64,000 nucleotides of DNA. It comes from a virus. Below, piece after piece: positions 3,766 through 55,254 of this stretch. The translations under genes and the position numbers were made by a program. The stretch lies in the IMG/VR virus record IMGVR_UViG_3300018059_000011, positions 1 to 64,000 of that record. One strand, given 5' to 3'. How positions within the stretch are numbered: the stretch's first letter is position 1; each line of letters starts with the position of its first letter. The notes beneath the pieces were generated by a model. The model ran no database searches. It worked only from the letters and a program-made list of their open reading frames with translations, and had not been told where the DNA came from.

Positions 3766-3795
3766 ATGAGCGGTCGTATCTGGGTTTTGTCGTGA
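3766..3795 (+). pseudogene. Remnant 5' end of the metallophosphoesterase gene (MSGRIWVLS*)
   Basis: RBS GGAGG plus 9 codons matching the N-terminus MSRIWVNA of the gene at 4259; stop overlaps the endonuclease GTG. Confidence 0.7.
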
Positions 3796-4262
3796 GAAAG
3801 AACGCCTCGAAATTCAGAGTGATGAGTAGGTCGGGAAAAATCTACTACGATTATGATCGTGAGACCCGCAAGCGCTGCAAATTTGTGATGCTGAAGAAAA
3901 CAAGTGCCTCGGGTAAAGTCTACTACACGTATCCTAGGACTAAGAAATTTCGGAAACAGGTACTGGCCCGTTCAAAACGCTGGAAAGAAAGAAATGCAGA
4001 GCACGTAAAGACCGTGAATCGAGAGCGACATTTGACGAGGCTCGAAAAATTGGCTGGTAGGCCCCGACCAGCCGCGTGTGAATGCTGCGGCGGTCCCCCA
4101 AACAGTAAGAGGTCAAAAAGATTGGAATACGACCACGATCATGTAACGGGCAAATTTCGTGGATGGCTGTGCGGTAACTGCAATAGAGCTTTGGGCCAAG
4201 CAAAAGAAAGTATCAGTCATCTGGAAAAGCTCATTGTGTATTTGAGGAGACATCAGTCATGA
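3792..4262 (+). CDS. Endonuclease VII-like (HNH) homing endonuclease
   Basis: CECC...DHDHVTGKFRGWLCGNCN motif; AT-richer than its flanks. Confidence 0.85.
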   Translation: MRKNASKFRVMSRSGKIYYDYDRETRKRCKFVMLKKTSASGKVYYTYPRTKKFRKQVLARSKRWKERNAEHVKTVNRERHLTRLEKLAGRPRPAACECCGGPPNSKRSKRLEYDHDHVTGKFRGWLCGNCNRALGQAKESISHLEKLIVYLRRHQS

Positions 4263-4753
4263 GTCGTATATGGGTAAATGCGGATTGCCACTTCGGGCAC
4301 CCGAACATTCTCAACTTCAAGCGAGATGACGGTAGCCTCATTCGTGGCGCTGTCTTCCAGAACTCGCACGAGCACAACGCTGTGGTCCGCCCCGAGGATC
4401 ATGTCTACTTCCTTGGCGATGTCGCCATCAACCGCCGGTTCCTGCCTCTCGTCACTCGGATGATGGGACACAAGCGGCTGGTGCGCGGCAACCACGACAT
4501 CGCCAAGACCAAAGAGTATCTCGACAACGGCTTCGACGAAATCTATGGCGTCCGCGTGTTTCGGGCGCAGGACCAACAGGGCAAGACCGGGTTCTTCCTC
4601 ACTCACATTCCGATTCACCCTCGGAGCCTGCCCGCGTGGGCGCGAAATGTCCACGGCCATCTGCACGCGAACATCGTCAAAGCCGGGCGCCGAGCCCGCT
4701 ATGGCCGAGGGGCCGCAGTCAAGATCGCAATCTCGTTGCCGGAGGATGTGTGA
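4259..4753 (+). CDS. Calcineurin-like metallophosphoesterase
   Basis: DCHFGH, LGD, RGNHD, LTHIP and HGHLH motifs. Confidence 0.9.
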   Translation: MSRIWVNADCHFGHPNILNFKRDDGSLIRGAVFQNSHEHNAVVRPEDHVYFLGDVAINRRFLPLVTRMMGHKRLVRGNHDIAKTKEYLDNGFDEIYGVRVFRAQDQQGKTGFFLTHIPIHPRSLPAWARNVHGHLHANIVKAGRRARYGRGAAVKIAISLPEDV

Positions 4754-4869
4754 TGTTCGATCCGCATAGTTGGATTACCGCTCTTGGAATCTCCGTCGCC
4801 GTGCTCGCGATCATCTTCGGGATCGCGGCCTGGGCCGTGAGCCGCACGAATCCGCTGGACAAGCTCTGA
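4753..4869 (+). CDS. 38-aa single-TM membrane peptide
   Basis: RBS GGAGG; coupled TGATG at both ends; one hydrophobic stretch. Confidence 0.6.
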   Translation: MFDPHSWITALGISVAVLAIIFGIAAWAVSRTNPLDKL

Positions 4870-5153
4870 TGAAAGAGATCGTCTTCGTAAGCCAGTCGCC
4901 AACCTCCGATCTCACTGTGAAGTGGAACAAGGACGGCACTGTGATGTTGACGTTGGCGTCGTCGCTTTCGACTGGGGCGACCGCCGAGAATCCGAAGCCC
5001 GTCGCCGCCGTCGAACTTGATTGGCCGACCTTGGCGGCGCTGAGACATTCCATCAATGTCGCCGAGGAGGCGGCTCTGGCAGAGGAACGTGAACGGGACG
5101 AGCTTCATAAGCTCGCCGGTCACATCGAAGGACAATTGGGGAGCATGGCATGA
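4869..5153 (+). CDS. Hypothetical protein
   Basis: Start MKEIVF coupled to the upstream stop. Confidence 0.65.
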   Translation: MKEIVFVSQSPTSDLTVKWNKDGTVMLTLASSLSTGATAENPKPVAAVELDWPTLAALRHSINVAEEAALAEERERDELHKLAGHIEGQLGSMA

Positions 5154-6202
5154 GCGAAGATGTTGCCGCCGAAGTCGCCGAGAAGAAGTACCACGTCATT
5201 GAACTGAATCTTCCGGCGGGACCGGGTGACGAAGTTCCGATCCCCGGCAAACCTCCCGTCGTAATCGACGGCCATCCCTTCGAGTTCGTGTCGTCGATCT
5301 CGCTTGGCTGCGACTGCGAGAGGCTGACCGAGGTCAAGGTTACGTTCCTCGCCGAAGTTCACGGCCAAGCGCATGTGCGTCAGACGCAGGAGTATCCGGC
5401 GCCCGACATCTACCGAGAGGTCGCGCAGTCTTTGCAGGCTGATGCCGCTATCGACCAGGGCCTCGGAGCCGTGCTTCAGCGCGCGCTCGACCGCGAGGCT
5501 TCGCGCCGCCCGCGCCGGGCCAAGGCCGTTGCCGACTTCACGCAGTCGTTTGACGCCCGCGATTGGGCTCGGGCCTTCATCGAGTTGGTCCGGCGCAATC
5601 CCGAGATTGCCTTCGACGAAGGCACGATGATCGGCTGGTTTGCGAATGCGATCATGCGCGGATACGACACCGGGTATTCCAAGGCCGATGCCGACATCAC
5701 GTCGTCCGCCGACGATGAAGACCCGATGGCAATCAATCGGGATATTCCCGAGGGCATTCGCAGGCAGTTTGGCGTGGACATCGAGTCGCTGGCCGGTCAT
5801 GTGGCCGCCGTTCACCCCGCCGATCCCTGGCCGACGCGGACGACGCCGCGCGGTGAGGGCGTGCGCCCGCCGACACACGCGGTTCATGTCCTCGTGAAGC
5901 ATCCGCGTATGATTCCGCTCTACGATCCGGTCACGCAGCCGTTGGATTACACCCGGCTCTACGAGGAAATTCCTCCGCATCTCAACAAGCCGGACGCCGA
6001 ACTCTGCGAGAGCGACATCAACCAGCGTGGCGCCTGCGCGCACGAACTCGAACTGATGGCCGCCCGTAAGAGTGAGGGTCTGGAATTGGCGTCCGATAAT
6101 GTCCCCTTCGACAAGGACGGCCCCGCTATCGTCTACAATCGTGAAAGCGTTGACGATGCCCGCCGCCGTGCCTCTAATCTCGAACCGGACAACGGCTGCT
6201 AA
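5150..6202 (+). CDS. Hypothetical multi-module protein
   Basis: 350-aa ORF, ATGA overlap; central FDARDWARAF...DEGTMIGWFANAIMRGYD block. Confidence 0.7.
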   Translation: MSEDVAAEVAEKKYHVIELNLPAGPGDEVPIPGKPPVVIDGHPFEFVSSISLGCDCERLTEVKVTFLAEVHGQAHVRQTQEYPAPDIYREVAQSLQADAAIDQGLGAVLQRALDREASRRPRRAKAVADFTQSFDARDWARAFIELVRRNPEIAFDEGTMIGWFANAIMRGYDTGYSKADADITSSADDEDPMAINRDIPEGIRRQFGVDIESLAGHVAAVHPADPWPTRTTPRGEGVRPPTHAVHVLVKHPRMIPLYDPVTQPLDYTRLYEEIPPHLNKPDAELCESDINQRGACAHELELMAARKSEGLELASDNVPFDKDGPAIVYNRESVDDARRRASNLEPDNGC

Positions 6203-6480
6203 TGGCGACCGAAGCGAGGCGTAATGGCGGGCGCAATGAACCGCTGGTCGATGACAATTGGCGCGGCGGCAAGAAACACCCCAAGCGCAAGCCTTTCGGT
6301 TTGCGCGTTACCTACGAATACACCTATTCGCTCTACGGTGGCGGTCAGAAGCGCCGGAAGTATACGTGGACGCAGTGGTATGCGACTCAACGCGCACGCG
6401 ATGATGCGGAAAAAGCGTTTCTTGCCGGTCGCGGCGGCTTCGCGCTTGCCTCGCGGACGTGTGAGAAGGTCGAAAAGTAG
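6202..6480 (+). CDS. Hypothetical basic protein
   Basis: 92-aa ORF coupled by TAATG. Confidence 0.6.
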   Translation: MATEARRNGGRNEPLVDDNWRGGKKHPKRKPFGLRVTYEYTYSLYGGGQKRRKYTWTQWYATQRARDDAEKAFLAGRGGFALASRTCEKVEK

Positions 6481-6491
6481 TCTTTGCACGA

Positions 6492-7121
6492 ATGAATACT
6501 GTCAGTACACGGATGGAGAATGCGGCGGGGGCGCCTTCAGTGCTGCTCGATGCGCTCATTAGGGCTGCTTTGATCCCGAGGCTCCGGGCCAAATACCAGA
6601 GTGAGAATCCTCGCATCGTCGATGAGATGGTTGTCTGGGGAGGAACCGTTAGAGTGGACGTGGCCGTAGTCGGTGACCAACTGCGCGGGTACGAGATCAA
6701 GAGCGACGCTGACACCGTGAGGCGGCTCCCTAACCAAGTGAAATACTACAGCGAAGCTTTTGACGAGATGACGCTGGTCGTCGGCGAGAAGCTTCAGCAC
6801 AAGGCTGTGGCCCTGATTCCTGAATGGTGGGCCGTCACCGTGGTCAGCTACGATGCCGGTGCTGCGAGCTTTCACGATCTGAGGCCGGGCGCCGCCAATC
6901 CCGTGTTGAAGCCGTTGATGCTCGCCCGATACCTCTGGAAAGCCGAGTCCCTTTCGATCCTCGAAAAGCACGGGCTCGCAAAAGGCTTTAGATCGGCGAG
7001 ATCGTATCTCCTCCAAAAGCGGGTGGCTTCGGAGTTGCCGGTCGATCTCCTGCGACAAGAGCTTTTGATCTGCCTGAAGGCTCGCGACCCGGACTGGCAT
7101 CGGGCCAAACATTCCGCTTGA
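6492..7121 (+). CDS. sce7726-family PD-(D/E)XK nuclease-like protein
   Basis: RVDVAVV...GYEIKSDADT..RL..Q...YS..FD..TLVV motif recognised as sce7726 family; start may be 6513. Confidence 0.75.
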   Translation: MNTVSTRMENAAGAPSVLLDALIRAALIPRLRAKYQSENPRIVDEMVVWGGTVRVDVAVVGDQLRGYEIKSDADTVRRLPNQVKYYSEAFDEMTLVVGEKLQHKAVALIPEWWAVTVVSYDAGAASFHDLRPGAANPVLKPLMLARYLWKAESLSILEKHGLAKGFRSARSYLLQKRVASELPVDLLRQELLICLKARDPDWHRAKHSA

Positions 7122-7147
7122 CAATTACGGCGACATTGTGCTAGGGT
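7118..7147 (+). promoter_or_regulatory. Promoter copy 1 (drives the HNH gene)
   Basis: TTGACA-N18-TAGGGT; 25/30 identical to the copy at 7568-7597. Confidence 0.7.
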
Positions 7148-7155
7148 CCGCGATC

Positions 7156-7566
7156 ATGCCCAAGTCGGATTTGTCGGTCGAAGAAAAACGTGAGCGCAAT
7201 ATCGCCAAGTGTTCTCGCTGGCGCAAGAGCAATCCAGAAAAACAACGTGGGTATGAAGCTACTTGGAATAAGGCTAACCCTGAACGACGCAGAGCCATAG
7301 CGGCCCGTGCTGGCAGAAAAGTTCGTCAACACAACTACGATTTTGTTTGGGAGTGGAAGAGTACCCATCCCTGTGTTGACTGCGGAGAGCCCGACCCAGT
7401 TGTTTTGGACTTCGCCCATCGAGATCGGAAGACCAAGATCGACAACATCAGCGACATGGTACGCAAAGGCGTGTCTTTGGCTAAGATAAAAGACGAAATT
7501 TCAAAATGCGATTGTCGTTGTGCTAATTGCCACCGTCGAAGGACATTTGTTGAGCGGATGTTTTAG
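7156..7566 (+). CDS. HNH homing endonuclease (family A)
   Basis: HPCVDCGEPDPVVLDFAH...KCDCRCANCHR. Confidence 0.85.
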   Translation: MPKSDLSVEEKRERNIAKCSRWRKSNPEKQRGYEATWNKANPERRRAIAARAGRKVRQHNYDFVWEWKSTHPCVDCGEPDPVVLDFAHRDRKTKIDNISDMVRKGVSLAKIKDEISKCDCRCANCHRRRTFVERMF

Positions 7567-7567
7567 T

Positions 7568-7597
7568 TTGACAATTGAGGCGTCATTGTGCTATGTT
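7568..7597 (+). promoter_or_regulatory. Promoter copy 2
   Basis: TTGACA-N18-TATGTT upstream of the gene at 7646. Confidence 0.7.
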
Positions 7598-7645
7598 CTC
7601 ATTTATGCCAAGAGATTGGCCTGACCAGAACCAGGAGAAAACCAC

Positions 7646-8257
7646 ATGAGCTTGTTGCTCAAGATTATGTCGTGCGAAGACGCGCCCGACGAAGATTCGC
7701 GCAAAACCTTTTGCCTCTACACCGACATCACATCCTGCCACTTCAGGCGTCATCCCGATGGCAGCGCCGAGGCCCACGTCTGGTGCCGCGAGCCGATCAA
7801 GACCGCGATGGTGCCCGGCTTCGTCGAGATCGAGAAGCACATCATTCTCACCGGCAATGCCTACCTCATGAACGAGAACGGCAAGACTGTTTCTTCGTTT
7901 GGCGTCGCCCGCTATGAAGACGGTAGACACACGGGTCCGCTTGGTCGCGATGCTCCGAAGGGAAATCTCATTCTCATCGGACCCGACCGTGAGCGCGTCA
8001 TTGAGGCTCTCGATTCGCTCGGGCTTGCGCTCGTCAACCATAGTCATCAGTGGAGCATGGACGAGAGGCGTCAGTACGAGGGCGCGATCTCTCTGCTCGA
8101 TGCCGACAAGAATAGGCGTCATCCCACGATTCGAGGGGCTCATACCCAGGCGACCATTGAACACGGCATGAATTTGGCAACACCAGATGCGAAATCGACT
8201 ACCGAAGCAGCGGCGTCGCGCCGGTCGCGCGTTGTCGAGCGGAACAGGGGGAAGTAG
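7646..8257 (+). CDS. Hypothetical protein
   Basis: RBS AGGAG; GNAYLMNENGKTV motif. Confidence 0.7.
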   Translation: MSLLLKIMSCEDAPDEDSRKTFCLYTDITSCHFRRHPDGSAEAHVWCREPIKTAMVPGFVEIEKHIILTGNAYLMNENGKTVSSFGVARYEDGRHTGPLGRDAPKGNLILIGPDRERVIEALDSLGLALVNHSHQWSMDERRQYEGAISLLDADKNRRHPTIRGAHTQATIEHGMNLATPDAKSTTEAAASRRSRVVERNRGK

Positions 8258-8331
8258 CTCACGGGAGTGATGCCCAATCAGCCTGAAGACTACAGTCGTT
8301 CAGAAACCAACCGCCGCAAGGAGGCAAAGTC

Positions 8332-8844
8332 ATGAACCAAGTAGCCCTCATCGTTCTGCTCGTTGGGCTTACTAACGGAGCACATGCACAGCAGGTAGCT
8401 GCTGCGAAGGCGAGCCTTGATTACGCCGAGCAACAGTGCCTTGCCGATGCCATGTACTACGAAGCGCGTGGAGAAGGCGAACGCGGCCAGCGTGCCGTCG
8501 CCGAAGTCGTGATCGCGAGGACGAAGCAATCGTATCGCCCTCACACGGTCTGCGGTGTCGTCTTTGAGCCTTATCAATTCAGCTTTACATTCGATGGCTC
8601 GATGAAGCGGAAACTCGACAACGAAGCGTGGGCCGATTCAATGGACCTCGCCGAGAGCATCATGTCGGGAAATCCGCGAAAAACGCGGAGTATCACGAAC
8701 GGTGCAACGTACTTTGCGCGCTACGACGTGAAGGCGCCGTGGATCGTCAACATGAACGTGACTGTTCAGATCGGCGATCATGTGTTCTACCGGCTCAAGC
8801 CGAAGGCCGAGAGAATTAGCTTGACGCGCGTGGCGTCGGACTGA
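8332..8844 (+). CDS. Cell wall hydrolase, SleB/Hydrolase_2 family, with signal peptide
   Basis: CLADAMYYEARGE...AVAEVV..R...P.TVCGVV..PYQFS...GATYF...IGDHVFY. Confidence 0.9.
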   Translation: MNQVALIVLLVGLTNGAHAQQVAAAKASLDYAEQQCLADAMYYEARGEGERGQRAVAEVVIARTKQSYRPHTVCGVVFEPYQFSFTFDGSMKRKLDNEAWADSMDLAESIMSGNPRKTRSITNGATYFARYDVKAPWIVNMNVTVQIGDHVFYRLKPKAERISLTRVASD

Positions 8845-8857
8845 TAAGGTTTCGGCA

Positions 8858-8932
8858 GACGATATGGCGGAAGGGTTTACGCGGGGAACTGCAAATTCTC
8901 TTATCCGGGTTCGAGTCCCGGTATCGTCTCCA
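8858..8932 (+). tRNA. tRNA-Cys(GCA)
   Basis: Acceptor GACGATA/TATCGTC, anticodon loop CT-GCA-AA, T-loop TTCGAGT, U73, encoded CCA. Confidence 0.92.
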
Positions 8933-8941
8933 ATTTTCTGC

Positions 8942-8971
8942 TTGACATCGGCCCCCTTCTTGTGGCAGGAT
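8942..8971 (+). promoter_or_regulatory. Promoter of tRNA-Pro
   Basis: TTGACA-N18-CAGGAT, 6 nt upstream of the tRNA; similar copy at 10615. Confidence 0.55.
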
Positions 8972-8977
8972 GTGATC

Positions 8978-9052
8978 CTAGTGATAGCTCAGCAGTAGAG
9001 TATCGGTTTTGGAAACCGAGGGCCGGGAGGGCAGCACTCCCTCACTAGACCA
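8978..9052 (+). tRNA. tRNA-Pro(TGG) with atypical T-loop
   Basis: Acceptor CTAGTGA/TCACTAG, A73, CCA; anticodon stem TCGGT/ACCGA with loop TT-TGG-AA; T-arm GGGAG-GGCAGCA-CTCCC. Confidence 0.85.
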
Positions 9053-9073
9053 GATTCGGTGATGGAGTTTGTC

Positions 9074-9226
9074 ATGGCAAGTCTCGGAAAGTTCAAGGTC
9101 AAGACGAATGACACAAAAGGACCGACCCCGCCTCTGCCGGGTCAGCCACCGAAGGGTCATGGCCCAAAGGGAGCGCCCGTAGGGGTCGGCTCCATGAAGA
9201 AGTTGGACGACAAAGCCTACTGCTAA
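9074..9226 (+). CDS. 50-aa Lys/Pro/Gly-rich protein
   Basis: Hand translation MASLGKFKVKTNDTKGPTPPLPGQPPKGHGPKGAPVGVGSMKKLDDKAYC*; RBS GGAG. Confidence 0.6.
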   Translation: MASLGKFKVKTNDTKGPTPPLPGQPPKGHGPKGAPVGVGSMKKLDDKAYC

Positions 9227-9287
9227 GTCGCCCCCGGTTTTCTCCTGATAAATTTCGTTCCTGAATAACTGGCGGTGATATTTTGCC

Positions 9288-9737
9288 ATGTTTGATAAGG
9301 AGAAGTACGACCGAAACCGGGATAAAGCAAAACGTCGTGCCCAAAATAAAGTCTATTGGGATCGGCACGGTGAAGTTGCGAAACATAAAAATAGAAATGC
9401 GACAAAATTACGCCAAGAGACTTTGGGTTTTGTGTATACTGGTAGACCTGGAAGGCCATCTAAGTTCAAAGATGGCAAGACTACATTAGAGCGGCGTAAA
9501 GAGATTCGGGACTACGCATGGAGGTATAAAGAAAGCCATCCGTGCGTAGATTGCGGCGAGAAGAATCCGATAGTTTTGGAGTTCGATCACAGGGACAGGA
9601 AAACAAAACTTTTTCATATAGGGGCCGGAAATACTAAGAATCGCGCCATTGAAGAAGTGAAGGATGAAATTGAAAAATGCGATGTACGTTGCGCTAATTG
9701 CCATCGCATCAAGACGTGGATTGAGAATTTACTCTGA
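9288..9737 (+). CDS. HNH homing endonuclease (family A)
   Basis: HPCVDCGEKNPIVLEFDH...KCDVRCANCHR; AT-rich. Confidence 0.85.
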   Translation: MFDKEKYDRNRDKAKRRAQNKVYWDRHGEVAKHKNRNATKLRQETLGFVYTGRPGRPSKFKDGKTTLERRKEIRDYAWRYKESHPCVDCGEKNPIVLEFDHRDRKTKLFHIGAGNTKNRAIEEVKDEIEKCDVRCANCHRIKTWIENLL

Positions 9738-10033
9738 ATGCCGTTTGGCATCAGGCTATTACGACCCCAGGTCGGACGTGAGGACCAGCGAAGTCTTCAT
9801 CCTTCCTGAATTACACTGGCCGCCATAGGCGGCGTTAGCTGTCGCGTCCGGGTAATGACCGGGCGGCTCGCGGAGAGCGCAGATACCAGAACTGTCGGCG
9901 GCATCTTGTTCGTTGTGGCGTGGCGTGGTGATGGGCGGTCGGGGATAACAGATGAGCCCCGACCGCCCGGAATGTGGGTAGGCCAGCGTTAATGGCCCGG
10001 TGTCATTGCTCGATAGCCGGTGGCGCCCACAAC
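9738..10033 (+). ncRNA. Candidate structured non-coding RNA(s)
   Basis: Run of GC-rich hairpins (GTGAGGAC/GTCTTCAT, GCCGCC/GGCGGC, GGGCGGTCGGGG/CCCCGACCGCCC, GTGGG...CCCAC junction); no credible ORF. Confidence 0.45.
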
Positions 10034-10069
10034 GAAATGTTTTGGCGAAGCAAAGAGAGGACTAGCATC

Positions 10070-10174
10070 ATGTCGAAGAAAATTCCTGCGGCGCTGAAGG
10101 CGCATCAGTTCAAGAAAGGGACGAAAGCCCCGAAGGCAAAGGCCAAAGGCAAGGGAAAAGCCAAAGGCAAGTAA
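10070..10174 (+). CDS. 34-aa lysine-rich (histone-tail-like) protein
   Basis: MSKKIPAALKAHQFKKGTKAPKAKAKGKGKAKGK*; RBS GAGAGGA. Confidence 0.65.
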   Translation: MSKKIPAALKAHQFKKGTKAPKAKAKGKGKAKGK

Positions 10175-10175
10175 A

Positions 10176-10262
10176 GAGGGCGGCGCAGCGTTTGGGTCAA
10201 CATAGCCTTAAGACCGCAAAGCGCCTATCAATGGTCGGGTTCGCGCCGACCGCTCTCGCCGA
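10176..10262 (+). ncRNA. tRNA-like element (acceptor stem plus T-arm mimic)
   Basis: GAGGGCG/CGCTCTC 7-bp stem directly stacked on GTCGG-GTTCGCG-CCGAC, followed by GCCGA. Confidence 0.4.
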
Positions 10263-10263
10263 G

Positions 10264-10342
10264 TCTGGTCGTAGCTCAGTCTGGTTAGAGCGTCGGATTG
10301 TGAATCCGAAGGGCGTTGGTTCAAATCCAACCGCCAGGACCA
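10264..10342 (+). tRNA. tRNA-His(GTG)
   Basis: D-arm GCTC-AGTCTGGTTA-GAGC, anticodon TCGGA-TT-GTG-AA-TCCGA, T-arm GTTGG-TTCAAAT-CCAAC, A73 plus CCA; acceptor stem needs a 1-nt bulge. Confidence 0.88.
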
Positions 10343-10343
10343 T

Positions 10344-10546
10344 TTAGTCGGATAGCATCGCATTCCGTCCGGCACAAGGATCGCCTCTCCATCGGTGATC
10401 CTTAGTTGCGGCGGCTGCGGTCGCCGCGCCTTATACGTCCCAGAACCGGCTCTGCCCCGGTATCCGGCTGGGGCCACTTCTGTGCCGTGGATGCCTGTTC
10501 GCGACAGGGCTCGGGCAATGCGAAAGCATCCCCTCTACGGACTGGC
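10344..10546 (+). ncRNA. Candidate ~200-nt multibranched ncRNA
   Basis: Nested helices TTAGTC/GACTGG, GCATTC/GGATGC, GGCACA/TGTGCC, AAGGATCGCC/GGTGATCCTT, GCGGCGGC/GTCGCCGC, GCCCCGG/CTGGGGC, ATGC-GAAA-GCAT. Confidence 0.5.
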
Positions 10547-10549
10547 GAG

Positions 10550-10590
10550 GAAACCGGGACAACCGAAAGGCTCTCCCGGTTTCTGCTTTT
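10550..10590 (+). terminator. Putative intrinsic terminator
   Basis: GAAACCGGGA...TCCCGGTTTC stem followed by TGCTTTT. Confidence 0.45.
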
Positions 10591-10649
10591 CTGCTGTACA
10601 GCAAATAATGCCGCTGGACATCGGCCCCAGATTGTGGCACTATTCACGG

Positions 10650-11090
10650 ATGAGAAAATATACGGATGCCCAACGTGAGGCTTCTCGCCTTAGAGGAGAA
10701 GGATGGAGAAAGCGTAATCCTGATAAAGACTACGAATGTAAGAGGGCTTGGCTTAAGGCCAATCCTGTAAAACGAAAAGCAATGCAGAAAAAGGCCGATG
10801 CGAAGCGCGGCCCTGTGCCTCCTGAAGTAACCCGGAAAAGGAATCGTTACTACAAATACGGGGTTAGCCCAGAGGATGTGGCTTTTATGATCGCGAGGCA
10901 GAAAGGAACATGCGCTATCTGTCCAATGCTTTTGTCTGAGAAAACGGCCCATGTAGACCACGACCATAAAACTGGGAAAGTCCGAGGGCTCCTGTGCCGA
11001 AAATGCAACCTGGGACTGGGGCATTTTGAGGACAATCCATCATTTCTGGTTTCCGCCGTGTCGTACCTTCAAAGAGTGGTGGACAGGTAG
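10650..11090 (+). CDS. Endonuclease VII-like homing endonuclease
   Basis: YKYGVSPED...QKGTCAIC...HVDHDHKTGKVRGLLCRKCNLGLG; start ATG 10650 lies 6 nt after a CACTAT -10 box (leaderless). Confidence 0.88.
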   Translation: MRKYTDAQREASRLRGEGWRKRNPDKDYECKRAWLKANPVKRKAMQKKADAKRGPVPPEVTRKRNRYYKYGVSPEDVAFMIARQKGTCAICPMLLSEKTAHVDHDHKTGKVRGLLCRKCNLGLGHFEDNPSFLVSAVSYLQRVVDR

Positions 11091-11137
11091 ATTGAAACGG
11101 TGCTATAATGCGGTCTTGATTCAAAAGGATACGTTTC

Positions 11138-11455
11138 ATGATGCTCCATCTGGTTATCACCGTGGCGATGTTCCTGAACGGCGCAGGAATTTCCCAGGAC
11201 ACGGACGCCCAACTGATGCAGACGCCGGATTGCGTGGCCGAGATTCAGCGTGTGGCCTCTGACTGGAAAGACCAGTACGGCGAAGACACGATTGTCGCGG
11301 GCTGGTGCGAGAACAAGGAACTGCCGGACGACAGAATCATGGAGATGCTGAAGTCGCATCTTCCCGAGGGCCATCCTCCGGTTGATTCTGAGCCGGGCGC
11401 GGCTCCTCAGTCGGCGCCGATGCCGAAGGCTTTCCCCGGCGGCGGCACCGCTTAA
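11138..11455 (+). CDS. Secreted or periplasmic hypothetical protein
   Basis: Hydrophobic N-terminus, two Cys; promoter TGGACA-N18-TATAAT at 11080-11109. Confidence 0.65.
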   Translation: MMLHLVITVAMFLNGAGISQDTDAQLMQTPDCVAEIQRVASDWKDQYGEDTIVAGWCENKELPDDRIMEMLKSHLPEGHPPVDSEPGAAPQSAPMPKAFPGGGTA

Positions 11456-11531
11456 TTTTCCAATCGGCGGCCTAAAGTTTACAATCGGGAGTCTTATAGT
11501 TGACAATCGCTCTGCGTAAAGTTGACAGTCA
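11452..11531 (+). repeat. Four phased direct repeats, consensus TAAAGTTGACAATCG, period ~22 bp
   Basis: Units at 11452, 11473, 11495 and 11517. Confidence 0.65.
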
Positions 11532-11761
11532 TGTTCATCAGCCTTCTGGGATGGGTTTTCGCTGCGGCCACGATTTTCTGCTACGCCCGTGAAGGCCGTC
11601 ATCACCTGTATACTCTCGGTTTTGCCGGGGCTTGCGTTCTCGGATTTGTCTACGGCATTCTCATTGGTTCATGGCCGCTGGCGGTTTCCGAAATTGTCTG
11701 GATCGGCACCTGTCTGTGGCGCTGGTACGGGCGAGTAGTGAAAGGGCTGGTAGGATTTTGA
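11531..11761 (+). CDS. Small 3-TM membrane protein (CBU_0592/PQ-loop-like)
   Basis: Three hydrophobic helices; FAGACVLGFVYG...SWPL...E.VW motif. Confidence 0.7.
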   Translation: MFISLLGWVFAAATIFCYAREGRHHLYTLGFAGACVLGFVYGILIGSWPLAVSEIVWIGTCLWRWYGRVVKGLVGF

Positions 11762-12123
11762 TGGTCCCAAAGATCGACGATCCGAATGCGCTTCCTCTCC
11801 GCACAATCCTCGTGATGTGCGTTCAAGCGGCTGTGGTTGCCCGCACGCTCGCGAACAGTGGCGACCGGCAGGCCGCCGGTAAGCTCGCGAGAGTTGTCAC
11901 TTCGGTATCGGACGGCCTTGGCAATCCCCAAGACCTGCTGAACGCCGTTGACGGCGCCATGAAAATTCTCGAAGCGCGTAAGATTCAGGTTGACAGCAAA
12001 GAAGTCGCCAGGGCCTCGAAAGCCGCCGATATGGCGATGAACATGGTCGAGGAATGGGTTGGCCTGACCCTCTCGAATATCCGCCGGAGAGTACACGAGG
12101 AGCGCGGTCGCAAAAGCGCTTGA
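11761..12123 (+). CDS. Hypothetical protein
   Basis: Start coupled by TGATG. Confidence 0.65.
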   Translation: MVPKIDDPNALPLRTILVMCVQAAVVARTLANSGDRQAAGKLARVVTSVSDGLGNPQDLLNAVDGAMKILEARKIQVDSKEVARASKAADMAMNMVEEWVGLTLSNIRRRVHEERGRKSA

Positions 12124-12171
12124 CTTTGGTTAACCCTCCTGGTAAAGTTCGACCAATCCTGGGAGGATGCA

Positions 12172-12906
12172 ATGAACCAAGTCGATAATTTGATCCACAT
12201 GGCGATGGTAGGTTCTGAGGCTCACGGCCTCGCGCGGGCCGATAGCGATCTCGATGTCCGGGCAGTCTACGTCGCCCCTAAGTCGAAGGTGCTGTCGCCG
12301 TTCTTCACGCCTCATTCGCCCCAAGAGATCAGCGGTGATGTCGATTTCTCCGCGTGGGAGCTTCGCCCCTTCGTGAAGATGTGTGCGTCGGCGAATCCGA
12401 ACTCACTTGAAGCGCTGTTTTCGGATGAGCGCTGTACCGTCGATCTTGTTGACGCGCATCCATTCGACGCGATGGCCGGGATCACGCTTGTGGCCGCGCG
12501 CAGTTTGTTCTTGACCAAGCGCATCGCGGCGACGCACGCGGGCTTCGCGAAGTCATGTATTCGCCGGTTGGAGCACGGTAAGACCCGCACGGGCGACCGC
12601 ACCGTCGATGTCGAGCGCTTCGGCTATGACACCAAGTACGCGATGCACGCCGTTCGCATTCTCGGCGTGGCCGTTCGTGCGCTTCAGCGTGGTGAGTACA
12701 AGATCATGGTCGATGAAGACGAGCGAAAGCTCCTGATCGCGATCCGCGAAGGCCAGTTCTCGAAGGATTGGGTGCTCGGCCAGATCGACAGCCGGGTGCT
12801 GGCGGCAGAGCGGGCGGCGCAGAAGTCGGATTTGCCGGACGAGCCGAGCATCAAGAATATCGAAGCCTTGGTGGAGGCCGTCAGCGAGATTTCCTGGCAG
12901 AAGTAA
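12172..12906 (+). CDS. DNA polymerase beta-superfamily nucleotidyltransferase (PF10127/RlaP-like)
   Basis: GSEAHGLARADSDLDVRAVY motif; ANPN.LE.L; YDTKYAMHAVR. Confidence 0.85.
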   Translation: MNQVDNLIHMAMVGSEAHGLARADSDLDVRAVYVAPKSKVLSPFFTPHSPQEISGDVDFSAWELRPFVKMCASANPNSLEALFSDERCTVDLVDAHPFDAMAGITLVAARSLFLTKRIAATHAGFAKSCIRRLEHGKTRTGDRTVDVERFGYDTKYAMHAVRILGVAVRALQRGEYKIMVDEDERKLLIAIREGQFSKDWVLGQIDSRVLAAERAAQKSDLPDEPSIKNIEALVEAVSEISWQK

Positions 12907-12978
12907 AGAAAAAGGCGGCGGTGGAAGCTTGACGTTGGGGAGGAGGGCCGTCGAGCTTGCCTGGATTACCGCCGCCAG
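12905..12978 (-). ncRNA. Candidate sRNA with anti-SD CCUCCUCCC loop (cuckoo/alpha-r14-like)
   Basis: Minus strand GGCGGCGGU...AAGCUCGACG-GCCCUCCUCCCCAA-CGUCAAGCUU..ACCGCCGCC-UUUUUCUUU; own promoter upstream. Confidence 0.7.
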
Positions 12979-12984
12979 AAGACC

Positions 12985-13014
12985 AGAATACTCTCCGGTC
13001 AGCGCCGAAGTCAA
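12985..13014 (-). promoter_or_regulatory. Sigma70-like promoter of the sRNA
   Basis: TTGACT-N18-TATTCT on the minus strand. Confidence 0.65.
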
Positions 13015-13016
13015 CC

Positions 13017-13046
13017 TTGCTTTTTCCGCGTCGTTCGTGCTACATT
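13017..13046 (+). promoter_or_regulatory. Divergent promoter for the packaging operon
   Basis: TTGCTT-N18-TACATT. Confidence 0.5.
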
Positions 13047-13074
13047 TCTCCGAGGGTGATGGAGGGAAATCCCA

Positions 13075-13494
13075 GTGGGCAAAAAGCCGCCGTTGATGCA
13101 GATGCCGTTTATTCGCGGCAAGCTCGAAAAAGAACCTAGTCAGAGCGGACTTATCAATCCGCTTGATCCGCGTAACATCAAGAAGGGGATTGGCGGCGGC
13201 GAAAGCCGCATCGTAGTCATCGTCCTCGAACGCGCGGGCGACGGCAAGACCGTTATCCGCGTGAAGCTCTATTCCACCAGCCCCGGTCGCCGCGTGTCGT
13301 ACCGCGACATCGAGTTCGAGGGCCGGTCGGAGTCCGAGTTTGTCCGCGATGTCAATATCACGGGTGGTGCCCTCGCTGAATGGCAGAACGCGACGGGGGA
13401 CAATCACGATCCGAGTTTGTGCGCGCGGGCCGCCGTCGAAGGAATGCGCGAAGCGCTGATGCAGTATGCGGCGATTAGGGCGAGGCGAGGATGA
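13075..13494 (+). CDS. Hypothetical protein
   Basis: 139 aa; RBS GGAGG; GTG start. Confidence 0.7.
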   Translation: MGKKPPLMQMPFIRGKLEKEPSQSGLINPLDPRNIKKGIGGGESRIVVIVLERAGDGKTVIRVKLYSTSPGRRVSYRDIEFEGRSESEFVRDVNITGGALAEWQNATGDNHDPSLCARAAVEGMREALMQYAAIRARRG

Positions 13495-13928
13495 GCACGA
13501 AGACAAAATGGATTTCAGCCGGTGTCAGCGACGGCGATCTCGCTGTCGCGCTGAGTAGCGGCAATGGCGGTGATTGGTTTTTGCTGATTGCGATCACCGG
13601 AGCCGACCGTAGGCCCCATCAGATCAAGGTCATGCTCGGAGGGCTTGATCTCGACGCCGCTGTCCACAACGCGGGCGGCGCCGCAGCCGCTATTGCCAAG
13701 GTCATTGGCGTCGATGAGACTTGGGCGGCGTCCACGACTCGCGATCTTATCGCCAATGACATTGCCAAAGACCCCGAACTTGGCCCGTTGCTGGTGAAAG
13801 GGCTGTCGTCCGGCGCCGCCGGGAAACCAGCGGTTTCCAAGAAGGCGAAGGCTGCCCCTCCCAAGCAAAGGAAAACCGGCAAAGGCCCGAAGAAGGCCGC
13901 TCGCCGTGTTCGCCGTGTTCGCCGTTAA
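13491..13928 (+). CDS. Hypothetical protein with basic C-terminal tail
   Basis: ATGA overlap; C-terminus KKAKAAPPKQRKTGKGPKKAARRVRRVRR. Confidence 0.7.
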   Translation: MSTKTKWISAGVSDGDLAVALSSGNGGDWFLLIAITGADRRPHQIKVMLGGLDLDAAVHNAGGAAAAIAKVIGVDETWAASTTRDLIANDIAKDPELGPLLVKGLSSGAAGKPAVSKKAKAAPPKQRKTGKGPKKAARRVRRVRR

Positions 13929-13981
13929 GGCGCCCCTCGACCGGACGAAGGAACCGCCCGTGGAAACGCTGGGGCTGAAGC

Positions 13982-15559: not shown

Positions 15560-15561
15560 AT

Positions 15562-16188: not shown

Positions 16189-16207
16189 TGTGGAGGAGAT
16201 CGTTCTG

Positions 16208-16732: not shown

Positions 16733-16768
16733 CTTGACAAATCTGGCTAAAACGACGAGACTGTGGTA

Positions 16769-18298: not shown

Positions 18299-18311
18299 TG
18301 GGGAGGCCCTA

Positions 18312-19453: not shown

Positions 19454-19479
19454 CAATTCGTCGTTAACCATGCTACGGT
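19450..19479 (+). promoter_or_regulatory. Promoter with TTAACCAT in its spacer
   Basis: TTGACA-N18-TACGGT; TTAACCAT at 19464-19471. Confidence 0.55.
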
Positions 19480-19524
19480 TATGACGTTGATGTAGTTGTG
19501 CGAACGAGCGAGAGGCCGAGCACG

Positions 19525-19788: not shown

Positions 19789-19843
19789 TCACCGTGCGGG
19801 TATTGAGAAACGCCTACCAACCACTTTGAGGAGGATGAACCCT

Positions 19844-20683: not shown

Positions 20684-20714
20684 GAGCATCAAGAGTTCAG
20701 CGGGGGAGAGTAAG

Positions 20715-20743
20715 AACGGGCGGCGGTGTCGCCCGTTTTTTTT
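20715..20743 (+). terminator. Rho-independent terminator
   Basis: AACGGGCGGC-GGT-GTCGCCCGTT followed by a T run. Confidence 0.8.
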
Positions 20744-20756
20744 AGGGGCATTGCTA

Positions 20757-43481: not shown

Positions 43482-45367
43482 TGGCTAACGATCTTGCGCT
43501 CCCCCAAGTCGCGGCCAATCAGAATCAAAAGGAAGTCACCATAAACAGCGCCACCGAACAACTTGGTGGCGCGGTGTCCGATGAACTCGCCGTCGATTTG
43601 ACCTCTGGCAACGTCACGCTGTCATCCACCAACTATCGCAAGTACGTCGCCTTCGTGTGCTCGGGAAACTCGGTTGCTCGCAATCTCACGTTTCCAACCG
43701 TCAAGCGTGGGCTTGTCATCGTCGTTAATAATGGTTCGGCGACGATGCACGTCGTCAAGGGCTCGACCTCGCTGCCGGTCATCGCCGGGGCTTCGTCCAT
43801 GTTCCAGACGGACGGCACTACGGATGGCCTCGTCGAGTTGCAAGCTGCCGGTAACGGCAGCGGCGCCTCCGTTGCGTGGCGCGGCGCGTGGTCCGGCGCG
43901 ACCACCTATGAGCCCAACGATCTCACGCAGGATGGCGGCTCCACGTACATCTGCATTCTCGAACATACGAACCAAGAGCCTCCCAACGGCACGTATTGGG
44001 AACTTTTCGCCTCGAAGGGCGACACCGGCCCGACTGGGGCCACGGGTCCGACCGGGGCTACGGGTGCGACTGGGGCGACCGGCGCGTTCGGCGGCGCCGT
44101 CGCCATCGAGTATGAGTTTTCGACCACGACTGCGGATGCCGATCCCGGCAACGGCTTCCTGCGTCTGGATAATGCCACGCAGTTGAGCGCGACTACGATT
44201 CGCGCCGACTTGCTCGATTTCAACGGTGCGACCGTCACCAACATTTTGGATGTGTTTGACGATAGCACCAGCGCCGTCAACGGCTTCATTCGCCTCGTCA
44301 AGAAGTCGGACCCCACGAAGTTTATTCTCTTCTCGGTCGGCACCGTAGCGACCCCCGCTGGCTACCGCAATATCTCTGTCAATGAGGTCGCGGCGTCTGG
44401 CGCCGATCCTTTCGCTGATACCGACATCATCGTCTTGGAGTTCACGGCCAACGGCGACAAGGGCGACACCGGAGCGACCGGCGCCACGGGTTCGTCTGGC
44501 GGCCTCGGCACTACGGGCTTGCCCGGAGGTTCCGTTACCATCGAATATACATTCTCGACCACTACCTCTGATGCCGATCCCGGCGCTGGAAATTTGCGAC
44601 TCAACAATTCGACGCAGGCATCAGCCACCAAGATTTTCGCCGATCTGCTCAATGACAACGGCGACGACTATACTGATCTGCTCGACACCCTCGATGCCAG
44701 CACCAATACGGTGAAGGGCGAAATCAAGCTTGTTAACAAGGCTGACTTCCGAAAGTTTATCATCTTCAACATGACGGCGCGGACAACCGCGACCGGCTAT
44801 CGTAAGTTGGACATCACCGAGATTGCGACTTCGGGCGTCGATCCCCTTGTCAACGACGACACTATCTATCTCGTGTTCACGCGCGCTGGCGACAAAGGCG
44901 CGACGGGGGCCACGGGCGCGACCGGCGCGACCGGCGCGGGTGTCCCGACCGCCGGGTCCGCGCATCAAGTTCTGCGGAAGATCGACGGCACAGACTACAA
45001 TACTGAATGGGCCGATCAGATTTACGACTTCGGCTTCTTCGCTGGCGGAAAGCCGGACACCGCTGAAATCGTTTTCAGGTACGTCGCTACTCGTGCTTTT
45101 CGGTTGCCATCGGCTCTTACGGGGTCGCAGTTCAATATCGGAACGAATCCGGCTGCGACCATGACGTGGACGATTAAGAAGAATGGATCGTCCGCATCTG
45201 GTTCCGGCGGCACCGTCGCATTCTCCACAAGCGGCACCCCAACGGTTACGTTTGCGGCAGACTCCGATTTTGCAGCCGGGGACATCCTCGAAGTGGACGC
45301 GCCGGGGTCACAAGATTCGACCGGCGCCGACATCTTCTTTGGCTTCCTCGCCAACTTGGTCCAGTAA
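43481..45367 (+). CDS. Tail fibre protein 1 (collagen-like repeats)
   Basis: N-terminal LPQVAANQNQKEVTIN anchor; GxT repeats; two ~120-aa [10 protein letters not shown] modules. Confidence 0.85.
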   Translation: MANDLALPQVAANQNQKEVTINSATEQLGGAVSDELAVDLTSGNVTLSSTNYRKYVAFVCSGNSVARNLTFPTVKRGLVIVVNNGSATMHVVKGSTSLPVIAGASSMFQTDGTTDGLVELQAAGNGSGASVAWRGAWSGATTYEPNDLTQDGGSTYICILEHTNQEPPNGTYWELFASKGDTGPTGATGPTGATGATGATGAFGGAVAIEYEFSTTTADADPGNGFLRLDNATQLSATTIRADLLDFNGATVTNILDVFDDSTSAVNGFIRLVKKSDPTKFILFSVGTVATPAGYRNISVNEVAASGADPFADTDIIVLEFTANGDKGDTGATGATGSSGGLGTTGLPGGSVTIEYTFSTTTSDADPGAGNLRLNNSTQASATKIFADLLNDNGDDYTDLLDTLDASTNTVKGEIKLVNKADFRKFIIFNMTARTTATGYRKLDITEIATSGVDPLVNDDTIYLVFTRAGDKGATGATGATGATGAGVPTAGSAHQVLRKIDGTDYNTEWADQIYDFGFFAGGKPDTAEIVFRYVATRAFRLPSALTGSQFNIGTNPAATMTWTIKKNGSSASGSGGTVAFSTSGTPTVTFAADSDFAAGDILEVDAPGSQDSTGADIFFGFLANLVQ

Positions 45368-47762: not shown

Positions 47763-48342
47763 GACGGGATTTGCCAAAGGGGCGGGACCGGCCATTTCGG
47801 GCGACGCGCAAAATTTGGCCGCCGGGCTCCGGCGTTTGGACAAGGTGCTCACGGGCACCGGCAAGGCGTATCTCAGCAAGGGCGATTGCAATCTCGATCC
47901 GTCCGTCATTCTCGACAACGCCCGTGTGCAGGTCGTTGGCGCGAACTCGGCGAACCGAACGCTTCATATCCCCTATGTGAATCGCGAAGTCATCTTCTCA
48001 AGCCATCCGAACAATCTCTTCGAGTTCGACATCGCCACCGACAAGATGACGATCTCGTTGAAGCCCGGCCAAAGTATCAAGGTGTTCATGGATGGCTTCG
48101 GCGGCATGGACGTGCTCGGCGGCTCTAGCGGCGGTGGCGGCCAGGGCCACGAAGGCAAGCGCGGTCCAGAGGGTCCACCCGGTAGACAGGGAGAACGTGG
48201 CGGCCAGGGCAATATCGGCCCGCGTGGTCCGCAAGGCAATCCCGGTCCAGCCGATCCGCGTTTCCAAATTCAGGACGGGCGTCTTCTGTTCGTTTCCGAC
48301 CAAGGAACCTTTGTGATCTCGGCGACGAAGCTCCCCGGCTAA
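47755..48342 (+). CDS. Collagen-repeat protein
   Basis: GKRGPEGPPGRQGERGGQGNIGPRGPQGNPGP. Confidence 0.7.
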   Translation: MSKTGFAKGAGPAISGDAQNLAAGLRRLDKVLTGTGKAYLSKGDCNLDPSVILDNARVQVVGANSANRTLHIPYVNREVIFSSHPNNLFEFDIATDKMTISLKPGQSIKVFMDGFGGMDVLGGSSGGGGQGHEGKRGPEGPPGRQGERGGQGNIGPRGPQGNPGPADPRFQIQDGRLLFVSDQGTFVISATKLPG

Positions 48343-48357
48343 GGAGGAGCCGTTGTC

Positions 48358-52341
<3,984 letters not shown>

Positions 52342-54417: not shown

Positions 54418-54429
54418 AGGACTACGCCC

Positions 54430-54696
54430 GTGGCCGACGACATCAATTTTGAAGTACAGCGCACCCTCGGTCGTCTCGAAGGCGGACAGGAACAGATTCT
54501 TGACGAACTCAAGCGGTTGCGTGTGGACTTCAACGGCCATGTTGAGGCCGATGACAAACGCTTTGGCCGGATCGACGCTGATCGCAATAAGGCCAAGGGT
54601 GCGGGCTGGGCCATCCTCGGCATCTTCTCTGCGTGCATCACCTTCGTCGGCAGCGCCGTCCTCGCGGTATTCGAGGGCTGGGTGAAGTTCCACTAA
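54430..54696 (+). CDS. Coiled-coil plus C-terminal TM protein (holin-like)
   Basis: LGRLEG...AKGAGWAILG TM; located in the lysis cassette. Confidence 0.6.
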   Translation: MADDINFEVQRTLGRLEGGQEQILDELKRLRVDFNGHVEADDKRFGRIDADRNKAKGAGWAILGIFSACITFVGSAVLAVFEGWVKFH

Positions 54697-54783
54697 TGCG
54701 CGGCCTCCTCCGACAGCGACAATAAGACATATCCGATAATCTTCGCAGCTTTCGATAAGCTATGCCTTATCGCGACGCTTCGC

Positions 54784-54857
54784 TGGGGATTCGTCCAACG
54801 GTAGGACTCCGGGCTCTGAACCCGGCAATGCAGATTCGACTTCTGTGTCCCTAGCTA
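54784..54857 (+). tRNA. tRNA-Gln(CTG), 3' end CTA instead of CCA
   Basis: Acceptor TGGGGAT/GTCCCTA, G73; anticodon CCGGG-CT-CTG-AA-CCCGG; T-arm GCAGA-TTCGACT-TCTGT. Confidence 0.88.
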
Positions 54858-55187
54858 AGCGCCGTACTTCTCATTCCAATGAAATTTGCGATGGCAGTTT
54901 GAGCACAAAACATCGCACTTTGCGATCTCTGCGAGGATACTGGGTTTTCCTCTACCAGCGAGAACACCGTGCGTAATATCGAAAAGTTTGGAGAATGGAT
55001 CACGGTGATGGAAGTCCAAGCAGGCCGGATGCGATTCGGGGCAATGCGAGCATTTCAACTTAGCCCTCAACGCCTCGAACCATTCACGGATTTCTATTTT
55101 TCGGCTCCTGATTCTTTTGACCTCTGATACCCGATTACGAGCGTACCATCGGTTTTGGGCCTGAAGTTGTTTCGACCGATCTCTCAT
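54855..55187 (-). CDS. HNH homing endonuclease (family A)
   Basis: CSHCPESHPACLDFHH...EIAKCDVLCSNCHR; leaderless promoter TTGACT-N17-TATCTT-N7-ATG. Confidence 0.85.
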   Translation of the reverse strand: MRDRSKQLQAQNRWYARNRVSEVKRIRSRKIEIREWFEALRAKLKCSHCPESHPACLDFHHRDPFSKLFDITHGVLAGRGKPSILAEIAKCDVLCSNCHRKFHWNEKYGA

Positions 55188-55223
55188 GGCCCAAAAGATA
55201 GCCCATTCGTACCCTTAAGTCAA

Positions 55224-55254
55224 GTCCGAATCCTGTGTCCCCAGCCAAGCGCCG
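55224..55254 (+). repeat. Duplicate of the tRNA-Gln 3' end (with CCA)
   Basis: GTCCGAATCCTGTGTCCCCAGCCAAGCGCCG; 25/31 identical to 54834-54864. Confidence 0.85.

Follow-up and report, generated by a model that had tools for sequence, protein, structure and literature searches.

WHO elements of Torulaspora and Lachancea yeasts consist of an endonuclease gene flanked on one side by a full-length host gene, which has received a resistant end in exchange for its own, and on the other by a displaced fragment carrying the old end; in the model proposed for them, the displaced fragment serves as a second homology arm (PMC7282813). As outlined there and in a further report, the WHO proteins are derived from inteins, contain zinc fingers and act in meiosis on a single nuclear gene, FBA1, and for WHO6 the resistance of the replaced end has been proven experimentally (PMC7282813, 10.64898/2026.08.13.744650). 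Here we describe a similar layout in the genome of an uncultured phage (IMG/VR record IMGVR_UViG_3300018059_000011, 84,543 bases), of which bases 1-64000 form the window, i.e., the whole stretch of 64,000 nucleotides that was analyzed; positions preceded by "genome" lie in the remaining 20 kb of the record. At five loci of this phage, an endonuclease gene has a complete host element on one side and, on the other, a displaced and partial second copy of the end of that element: the start of a phosphoesterase gene (endonuclease gene H1), a promoter (H2), the end of the large terminase gene (H5), the 3' end of a tRNA-Gln (H10) and the start of the DNA polymerase gene. With a probability of about 0.75, we interpret five, perhaps six, of the 13 endonuclease genes of the phage as homing cassettes that replace the end of their target, each consisting of the endonuclease gene and a diverged substitute for the displaced piece.

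Mobile open reading frames (ORFs) that turn their host genes into hybrids have been reported in fungal mitochondria, namely in atp6 of Allomyces macrogynus and in atp6, atp9, cox2 and nad3 of Glomus; the layout described is foreign gene end, endonuclease ORF and native end, with the native end being closer to endonuclease-free relatives (PMC3630166). Partial duplications beside free-standing mitochondrial endonuclease genes, including one of an atp9 N-terminus, are also among the cases described in PMC7487136.

For phages, a search of the literature outside of subscription journals and supplements yielded no account of an endonuclease gene accompanied by a displaced duplicate. The free-standing Seg and Mob genes, which encode GIY-YIG or HNH endonucleases, are polymorphic among related phages; genomes that lack the endonuclease are cleaved, and the genes spread in this way, with the flanks being co-converted. 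To our knowledge, these genes lie between host genes, owe their immunity to polymorphisms in the neighboring genes and are not accompanied by a displaced duplicate. Several reports deal with Seg and Mob endonucleases and their intronless homing in T4-like phages (PMC2988022, PMC2330249, PMC2790892).

Displaced duplicates at five loci

The two sides of each endonuclease gene were compared by aligning 130 bases around the gene start with 130 bases around the gene end, and the flank scores were set against those of 3000 random intervals of like length, excluding collagen-like repeats, tube-gene repeats and endonuclease genes; at the peptide level, exact matches were counted in 1500 control intervals. 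The flanking repeats are 21-75 nt long and 57-88% identical. In a preliminary description of the window, four cases of such duplication had been called clear; three of these, the promoter, the tRNA 3' end and the 5' end of the phosphoesterase gene, withstand the controls (Table 1), and the fourth, a gene end encoding RGD and the stop, comprises four codons only. Two cases come in addition to that list: one is the 3' end of the terminase gene, and the other, located just outside of the window, comprises codons 1-25 of the DNA polymerase gene. Hereinafter, the displaced copy is called the stump and the copy joined to the rest of the element the in-gene or supplied copy. At the gene-start, promoter and tRNA loci, the order along the direction of the endonuclease gene is stump, endonuclease gene, supplied copy, rest of the element. 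At H1, H10 and the polymerase locus, the endonuclease ORF reaches up to or into the supplied copy; the promoter supplied at H2 begins 2 nt after the stop codon.

The polymerase locus is the strongest case of all. The first 25 polymerase codons are present twice, in the gene itself and upstream of the endonuclease gene, and the copies differ by 21 bases, with 16 codons changed synonymously and the same amino acids encoded except for ATG versus TTG as the start. The G+C content at third codon positions (GC3) is 0.32 in the 25 in-gene codons and 0.72 in the stump, compared to 0.68-0.80 in the next eleven blocks of 25 codons, so that the composition of the in-gene piece is that of the endonuclease gene and changes abruptly at codon 25. 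The endonuclease ORF extends 17 nt into the new polymerase start, and the stump is an intact mini-ORF, the stop of which overlaps the start of the endonuclease gene (ATGA).

Loci in the region 2500-22000 could be compared with metagenomic contigs. Parts of the window region 3200-13000 are contained in 11 public runs, and the contigs of four of these (X1-X4) were aligned to 2500-22000; depth dips and uncovered regions were not counted as evidence. The phage or close strains of it are present in freshwater-sediment and sediment metagenomes from 2018 and 2025, and run X3 also contains a diverged relative in the form of a 16.3-kb contig that is about 82-95% identical in pieces. Within 2500-22000, H1 is missing from contigs of X2 and X3, H3 from contigs of X1, X2 and X3, and H6 from those of X2, i.e., the presence of these three genes varies among the runs, as expected of mobile genes. 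H3 is polymorphic even within the probable source sample. The occupied forms of H2 and H5 were also assembled in run X2, a separate sample, and thus are not an artefact of one assembly.

At the phosphoesterase locus, the identity of the native copy is evident directly. The stretch 3750-3785 aligns to 4240-4275, with a ribosome-binding site, ATG and first codons in both (MSGRIWV versus MS-RIWV), which bears out the initially noted repeat of the gene 5' end at 3766 and 4259. In the H1-free contigs (X2, at a depth of 7.29 the main strain there, and X3, at a depth of 3.3), position 3785 is joined to 4289 with 13 letters between, and the allele reads as a single in-frame start, MSGRIWV-ASDH-HFGH, the first part of which follows the upstream stump. 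The 13 joining letters are found in neither copy of the window, and hence the H1-free allele did not arise from the occupied allele by deletion. In the protein database, a 191-residue phosphoesterase (P0002) starts with MSGRIWVASDHHFGHPN, which is exactly the H1-free N-terminus; among 120 listed members of the family, NADCH, the form in the window, occurs once (in the window's own protein), ASDHH 8 times and ISDTH 39 times. The expectation that endonuclease-free relatives hold a single copy is therefore confirmed at H1, where the single start matches the stump rather than the in-gene copy: the H1 cassette (3786-4288) brought a different, atypical gene start, and the stump is of the native kind. 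The letters replaced fall on the DxH metal-binding motif of the phosphoesterase.

Two further features of this phosphoesterase can be mentioned. The protein encoded by the occupied allele is without eight residues (DEIIIAKH) that P0002 has, with the metal-binding motifs retained, and the usual C-terminal part of the family (PDPRYICVS...) is absent in every frame of 4600-4929, the C-terminus of P0002 being different again.

At the promoter locus, 7118-7164 aligns to 7568-7612, in agreement with the preliminary description. The 26-nt promoter core, with 3 differences, is found in the window at these two sites only (0.00 expected in shuffles), and the downstream copy is the sole promoter-like site called by a scan of 6900-7800. 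The ATG of H2 lies inside the duplicated stretch, at the expected distance from the promoter of the stump. Downstream of the second promoter copy, an almost leaderless ORF of 14 codons (7605-7649, MPRDW...) ends in a TGA that overlaps the ATG of gene 7646-8257; its first codons are part of the sequence shared with the H2 gene start.

The tRNA-Gln repeat (54831-54864 versus 55221-55254), reported earlier for positions 54834 and 55224, is identical at 27 of 34 positions in our own ungapped count. The acceptor strand of the displaced copy pairs completely with the 5' strand and includes an encoded CCA, which is also encoded in all three other tRNAs of the window, whereas the in-gene copy forms one G-U pair and ends in CTA. 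The reconstructed endonuclease-free tRNA-Gln is called by ARAGORN, with predicted cloverleaf energies of -24.8 to -25.7 versus -24.6 kcal/mol; these values appear compatible with the replacement reading and do not decide it. No exact match to the 5' part of this tRNA was found in IMG/VR or GTDB genomes. The H10 family has matches in 385 phage records, many of which are annotated as HNH endonucleases.

The order at the terminase locus is reversed relative to the other loci, i.e., in-gene end, H5, displaced end. The repeat was found at the peptide level: the second copy of MWRRSF and the stop (16188-16208) has 9 of 21 bases changed (own count), and an exact 7-mer match of this kind occurs in 0 of the 1500 controls. 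The diverged 16.3-kb contig of X3 is 679 nt shorter across the H5 region. Distant terminase relatives end in unrelated tails and are uninformative on MWRRSF.

The composition of the copies points in the same direction as the H1-free allele. The G+C content of the in-gene or downstream copy versus the stump is 0.43 versus 0.55 at H1, 0.40 versus 0.53 at H2, 0.56 versus 0.65 at H10 and 0.47 versus 0.60 at the polymerase locus. The GC3 of the 13 endonuclease genes is 0.43-0.57, compared to 0.68-0.75 in six long host genes, and every low-GC3 ORF of the set is an endonuclease gene. Composition thus points to the in-gene copy as the foreign one at four of the five loci, most sharply at the polymerase locus. 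Taken together, the displaced copy is native and the in-gene copy foreign at H1, where the evidence is direct; elsewhere the data point the same way, by composition at the polymerase, H2 and H10 loci and by structure at the tRNA, with no difference at H5.

Table 1. Endonuclease genes, duplicated elements and flank scores (window positions unless marked "genome"; in brackets, controls reaching the score)
Feature	Position	Strand	Flank score	Remarks
Polymerase start, in-gene copy	genome 83652-83726			first 25 codons
Endonuclease gene of polymerase locus	genome 83710-84120	-	53 (0/3000)	phrog_3322; locus spans genome 83651-84206
Polymerase start, displaced copy	genome 84132-84206			first 25 codons, upstream of endonuclease gene
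Phosphoesterase start, displaced native copy	3750-3791	+		ribosome-binding site, ATG 3766, mini-ORF MSGRIWVLS and stop; TGA overlaps GTG at 3792
H1	3792-4262	+	26 (18/3000)	Endonuclease_7 (PF02945, E 1.5e-17; phrog_2633); GC3 0.50; stop overlaps ATG 4259
Phosphoesterase start, supplied copy	4240-4288	+		ribosome-binding site and first 10 codons (MSRIWVNADC) of phosphoesterase gene 4259-4753
Upstream promoter copy	7118-7164	+		TTGACA, 18 nt, TAGGGT; then ATG 7156 starting H2, almost no leader
H2	7156-7566	+	37 (0/3000)	HNH (phrog_2255, E 5e-25); GC3 0.50; also in 2334-nt contig of run X2
Downstream promoter copy	7568-7612	+		TTGACA, 18 nt, TATGTT, TG before second hexamer; upstream of gene 7646-8257
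Terminase end, in-gene	15539-15559	+		last six codons and stop of large terminase gene (PF03237): MWRRSF, TAG
H5	15562-16188	+		GIY-YIG (PF01541, E 2.4e-9); GC3 0.57; stop overlaps ATG of next mini-ORF; in run X2 contigs
Terminase end, displaced	16185-16208	+		mini-ORF MMWRRSF and stop, contains GGAGGAG; TGA overlaps ATG of next gene (TGATG) at 16208
tRNA-Gln(CUG)	54784-54855	+		in-gene copy is the 3' part, starting near 54831; one acceptor-stem G-U pair, CTA in place of CCA
H10	54855-55187	-	36 (0/3000)	HNH (phrog_3106, E 4.6e-23); antisense to tRNA; TAG stop is the CTA at 54855-54857
tRNA-Gln 3' end, displaced, apparently native	55221-55254	+		acceptor strand fully paired with 5' strand, CCA encoded
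H3	9288-9737	+	23 (66/3000)	HNH (phrog_2255); tRNA-cluster spacer; insertion 9264-9738, no supplied copy
H4	10395-11090	+		Endonuclease_7; after tRNA-His, no flank repeat
H6	20757-21083	+		Endonuclease_7; cassette 20725-21107 replaces 58-nt spacer (X2 contig); no flank repeat
RGD end of gene 25248-26231, in-gene	26220-26231	+		possible supplied copy, weak case
H7	26237-26785	+		GIY-YIG/NUMOD3; ends in RGD and stop, TAATG on start of next gene
H8	28189-28791	+	14	GIY-YIG; between tail-terminator and tube genes, ATGA overlap at each end, no duplication
H9	31197-31832	+		GIY-YIG/NUMOD3; after tube gene, no flank repeat
Endonuclease gene	42954-43481	+		phrog_3322; between two tail genes, overlaps both, no flank repeat
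Endonuclease gene	genome 81278-81709	-		Endonuclease_7
All other loci			11-18	background; control mean 15.9

Other endonuclease genes and genome context

Altogether, 13 free-standing endonuclease genes were identified in the 84.5 kb of the genome, 11 of them within the window and 2 in the remaining 20 kb, and a domain of a known homing-endonuclease family was found in each (Endonuclease_7 and GIY-YIG by Pfam, the rest by PHROGs as HNH, endonuclease VII or endonuclease). Six of these genes had been named previously; the further seven are H4, H5, H6, H9, the phrog_3322 gene of the window and both genes located outside of it. The earlier assignment to three unrelated families proved overstated, given that the set comprises GIY-YIG enzymes and several His-Me-finger families (Endonuclease_7, HNH of phrog_2255 and phrog_3106, and phrog_3322); the Endonuclease_7 and HNH enzymes of this phage we take to belong to one superfamily. 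Paralogous endonucleases are 25-53% identical, and thus none is a recent copy of another; in the phage collection, their relatives are at most 44% identical among the matches listed.

The pattern had been proposed as a general strategy, which is not sustained: it is present in 5 of the 13 genes, or 6 if the RGD case is counted, and the other genes lie between genes or replace a spacer. For H3, the repeat at 9258 and 9803 listed as a weaker case is real but marginal and is contradicted by the H3-free alleles, in which position 9263 is joined to 9739 with CTC between (X1 and X2) or 9232 to 9739 with 35 letters between (X3). The left repeat spans the insertion junction and the right one lies 64 nt beyond, so that H3 does not conform to a duplicate-and-replace arrangement. 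The other weaker case, 28192 and 28750 at H8, has a flank score at background and amounts to just two stop/start overlaps. At H6, the left cassette edge (20724/20725) is within the hairpin of a terminator (20712-20742), downstream of which a run of T follows, and hence the cassette seems to bring its own half of the terminator; there is no stump at this locus. The other seven endonuclease genes look like products of ordinary intergenic homing, with no duplicate. We also considered the H3 spacer as a candidate structured RNA by folding its endonuclease-free form; a z-score of -2.1 against simple shuffles is too weak, and the candidate was rejected. Between tRNA-Cys and H3, a fourth tRNA (8978-9049, CCA encoded) is detected by Infernal with 48.9 bits and missed by ARAGORN.

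A mini-survey of 8 endonuclease-like ORFs in 53 loci yielded best flank scores of 21-22, which are not significant (40 of 2000 controls reach 24). In three of the eight ORFs, a 17-nt repeat consisting of a ribosome-binding site and ATG was observed; these three encode distant relatives of the H1 enzyme and are located in the IMG/VR contigs L052 (~2465-2872), L053 (1621-2028) and L056 (2339-2746), with scores of 19-22, which again are not significant. This repeat may represent the same habit in miniature.

Genes of the phage are encoded on the plus strand up to about 54.8 kb and on the minus strand beyond. A near DNA match is absent among 50,697 phage records, and a distant DNA search of phage records yielded only short matches, with 69-77% identity, to Caulobacter and Brevundimonas phages. 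The polymerase is at most 39% identical to those of cultured phages among the matches listed and 52% identical to the best IMG/VR contig, and protein-seeded scans of IMG/VR and metagenome contigs detected distant relatives only, with identities of up to 52%. Several other repeats were observed in the window: a 32-nt repeat present four times near its left end (1186-1487), with TTAACC and GGTTAA motifs; a module of ~435 nt repeated inside the gene for a 788-residue tube-like protein (29276-30096); and long collagen-like repeats with a 9-nt period in two tail-fibre-like genes (43991-45000 and 48100-51800).

Replacement cassettes and alternative explanations

Under the replacement reading, each cassette would carry a substitute for one piece of the target: the start of a gene together with the ribosome-binding site, the end of a gene including the stop, a promoter, or one third of a tRNA at the 3' side. 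On insertion, the cassette would join the substitute to the remaining part of the host element and push the native copy across the endonuclease gene, where it would persist as a stump. The element joined to the substitute is whole without splicing. The predicted target of the enzyme is the native sequence, with the cut falling at the segment that is replaced or close to it; the substitute would escape cutting. The stump could then act as the second homology arm, as in the WHO model, and may also feed the expression of the endonuclease gene or of a neighbor, as suggested by two mini-ORFs with overlapping stops, one promoter, and one ribosome-binding site with the stop/start overlap of the next gene. 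A substitute need not encode protein, and elements of this type therefore could invade promoters and tRNAs besides essential genes. That these cassettes form a distinct class of phage homing elements, in which a cleavage-resistant substitute is combined with the endonuclease gene and with a displaced native piece that doubles as homology arm and expression signal (by mini-ORF coupling or as a promoter), is a tentative proposal to which we give somewhat less than even odds.

Several observations weigh against the replacement reading. Seven of the 13 endonuclease genes (H3, H4, H6, H8, H9, 42954-43481 and genome 81278-81709) are without a duplicate, and the endonuclease-free alleles of H3 and H6 indicate plain insertion or spacer replacement. 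The repeat of RGD and the stop at 26231 and 26785, one of the cases initially called clear, is too short to count, given that an exact match of four or more residues occurs in 634 of 1500 controls; what stands is its notable placement, as an ORF ends with each of the copies, and the family has RG(S/D) as a conserved C-terminus (...RL(I/V)RG(S/D)). Among the contigs covering 2500-22000, an endonuclease-free allele is seen at one of the five duplicated loci (H1), and the contig joints listed over this region include no endonuclease-free allele of H2. At H5, the two copies are equal in G+C content (0.52 versus 0.52), and at the other loci one donor of low G+C content would likewise account for the composition of the supplied copies. 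No close relative of the phage was found in phage, IMG/VR or metagenome collections, where the best polymerase match has 52% identity and the best terminase match 45%. For the H1 enzyme, relatives are at most 46% identical, and the same cassette was not found in a second genome. Finally, both the immunity of the supplied copies and the positions of the cuts are what we infer from the arrangement of the sequence.

The main alternative is that the duplicates are one-off accidents of break repair, in which an endonuclease gene was copied in from a diverged donor through one-sided homology followed by an illegitimate join, and the stump has no role in spread or expression. One-sided repair would leave such a layout, including a stump that matches the local endonuclease-free allele, as at H1, and the presence of seven endonuclease genes without duplicates and the lack of a second genome with the same cassette also fit with accidents. 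Against this, the same layout recurs at five independent loci of one genome, and the stumps are more orderly than repair debris should be: both gene-start stumps are intact mini-ORFs with stops overlapping the endonuclease start, the ATG of H2 falls within the duplicated stretch, and the terminase stump retains a ribosome-binding site along with the overlap between its stop and the start of the next gene. A series of accidents accordingly appears unlikely.

That the repeats result from chance, or are ordinary recurring signals (promoters, ribosome-binding sites, tRNA ends) beside small genes, is suggested by the RGD, 28192/28750 and 9258/9803 cases, all at or near background, and by a third promoter of similar outline at 19450. 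For the five strong loci, this explanation is refuted by the controls (0/3000 at three loci, 18/3000 at one and 0/1500 for the 7-mer peptide), by the confinement of the promoter core to the flanking sites and by the H1-free allele with its one copy; for the weak loci, it stands. As an account of the whole pattern, it is very improbable. Hardly any more weight can be given to unrecognized self-splicing introns or inteins, or to transposons with target-site duplications. Phage introns and inteins typically interrupt tRNA, polymerase and terminase genes, and the elements affected here include all three. However, in agreement with the preliminary description, intron or intein features are lacking: no Rfam intron family reaches the gathering score anywhere in the record, none is found around the tRNA clusters at E up to 5, and the Rfam matches consist of four tRNAs, all of which lie in the window. 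Each endonuclease ORF begins and ends with codons of its own, in a frame other than that of the host element or, in the case of H10, antisense to it; neither a ribozyme core nor an in-frame splicing domain was found at these loci, and the host elements are complete as encoded, unspliced. A transposase domain was not found in the intervening ORFs, and the repeats, diverged (73-88% identity) and up to 75 nt long, are unlike target-site duplications.

Comparison with known systems

The replacement reading would explain how, in the absence of introns and inteins, free-standing endonuclease genes came to lie within a promoter, a tRNA and the essential genes for polymerase and terminase. For annotation, short stump ORFs and chimeric ends of genes will be a source of error in gene calling, phylogenies and pangenome analyses. 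The replaced segment would provide a direct guess at the recognition site of the enzyme, such as the 13 letters lost at the DxH motif of the phosphoesterase, and this could hasten the discovery of new site-specific nucleases.

With respect to described systems, H3, H4, H6, H8, H9 and the two other genes without duplicates fit directly with Seg/Mob intronless homing. The duplicated loci resemble WHO elements in that no splicing is needed, and the terminase locus has the same layout as WHO (in-gene end, endonuclease gene, displaced end). In contrast to WHO, the phage enzymes are of the His-Me-finger and GIY-YIG types, the targets include gene starts, a promoter and a tRNA, and the resistance of the supplied copies is a prediction. 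Given their Endonuclease_7, HNH and GIY-YIG domains, the phage genes fall outside of the WHO family, and the likeness to it is one of mechanism alone. Similarly to the mitochondrial mobile ORFs, the native end is nearer to endonuclease-free relatives (H1) and the protein is kept while the nucleotides diverge (polymerase); unlike in the mitochondrial cases described in those reports, which are mostly protein C-termini with GIY-YIG or LAGLIDADG enzymes, the phage adds 5' ends with ribosome-binding sites, a promoter and a tRNA. A mechanism of yeast nuclei and fungal mitochondria would thus be extended to phages and to non-coding targets. While the mechanism itself is known outside of phages, the promoter and tRNA 3'-end targets, the gene starts with ribosome-binding sites and a stump that apparently serves expression are new relative to the literature searched.

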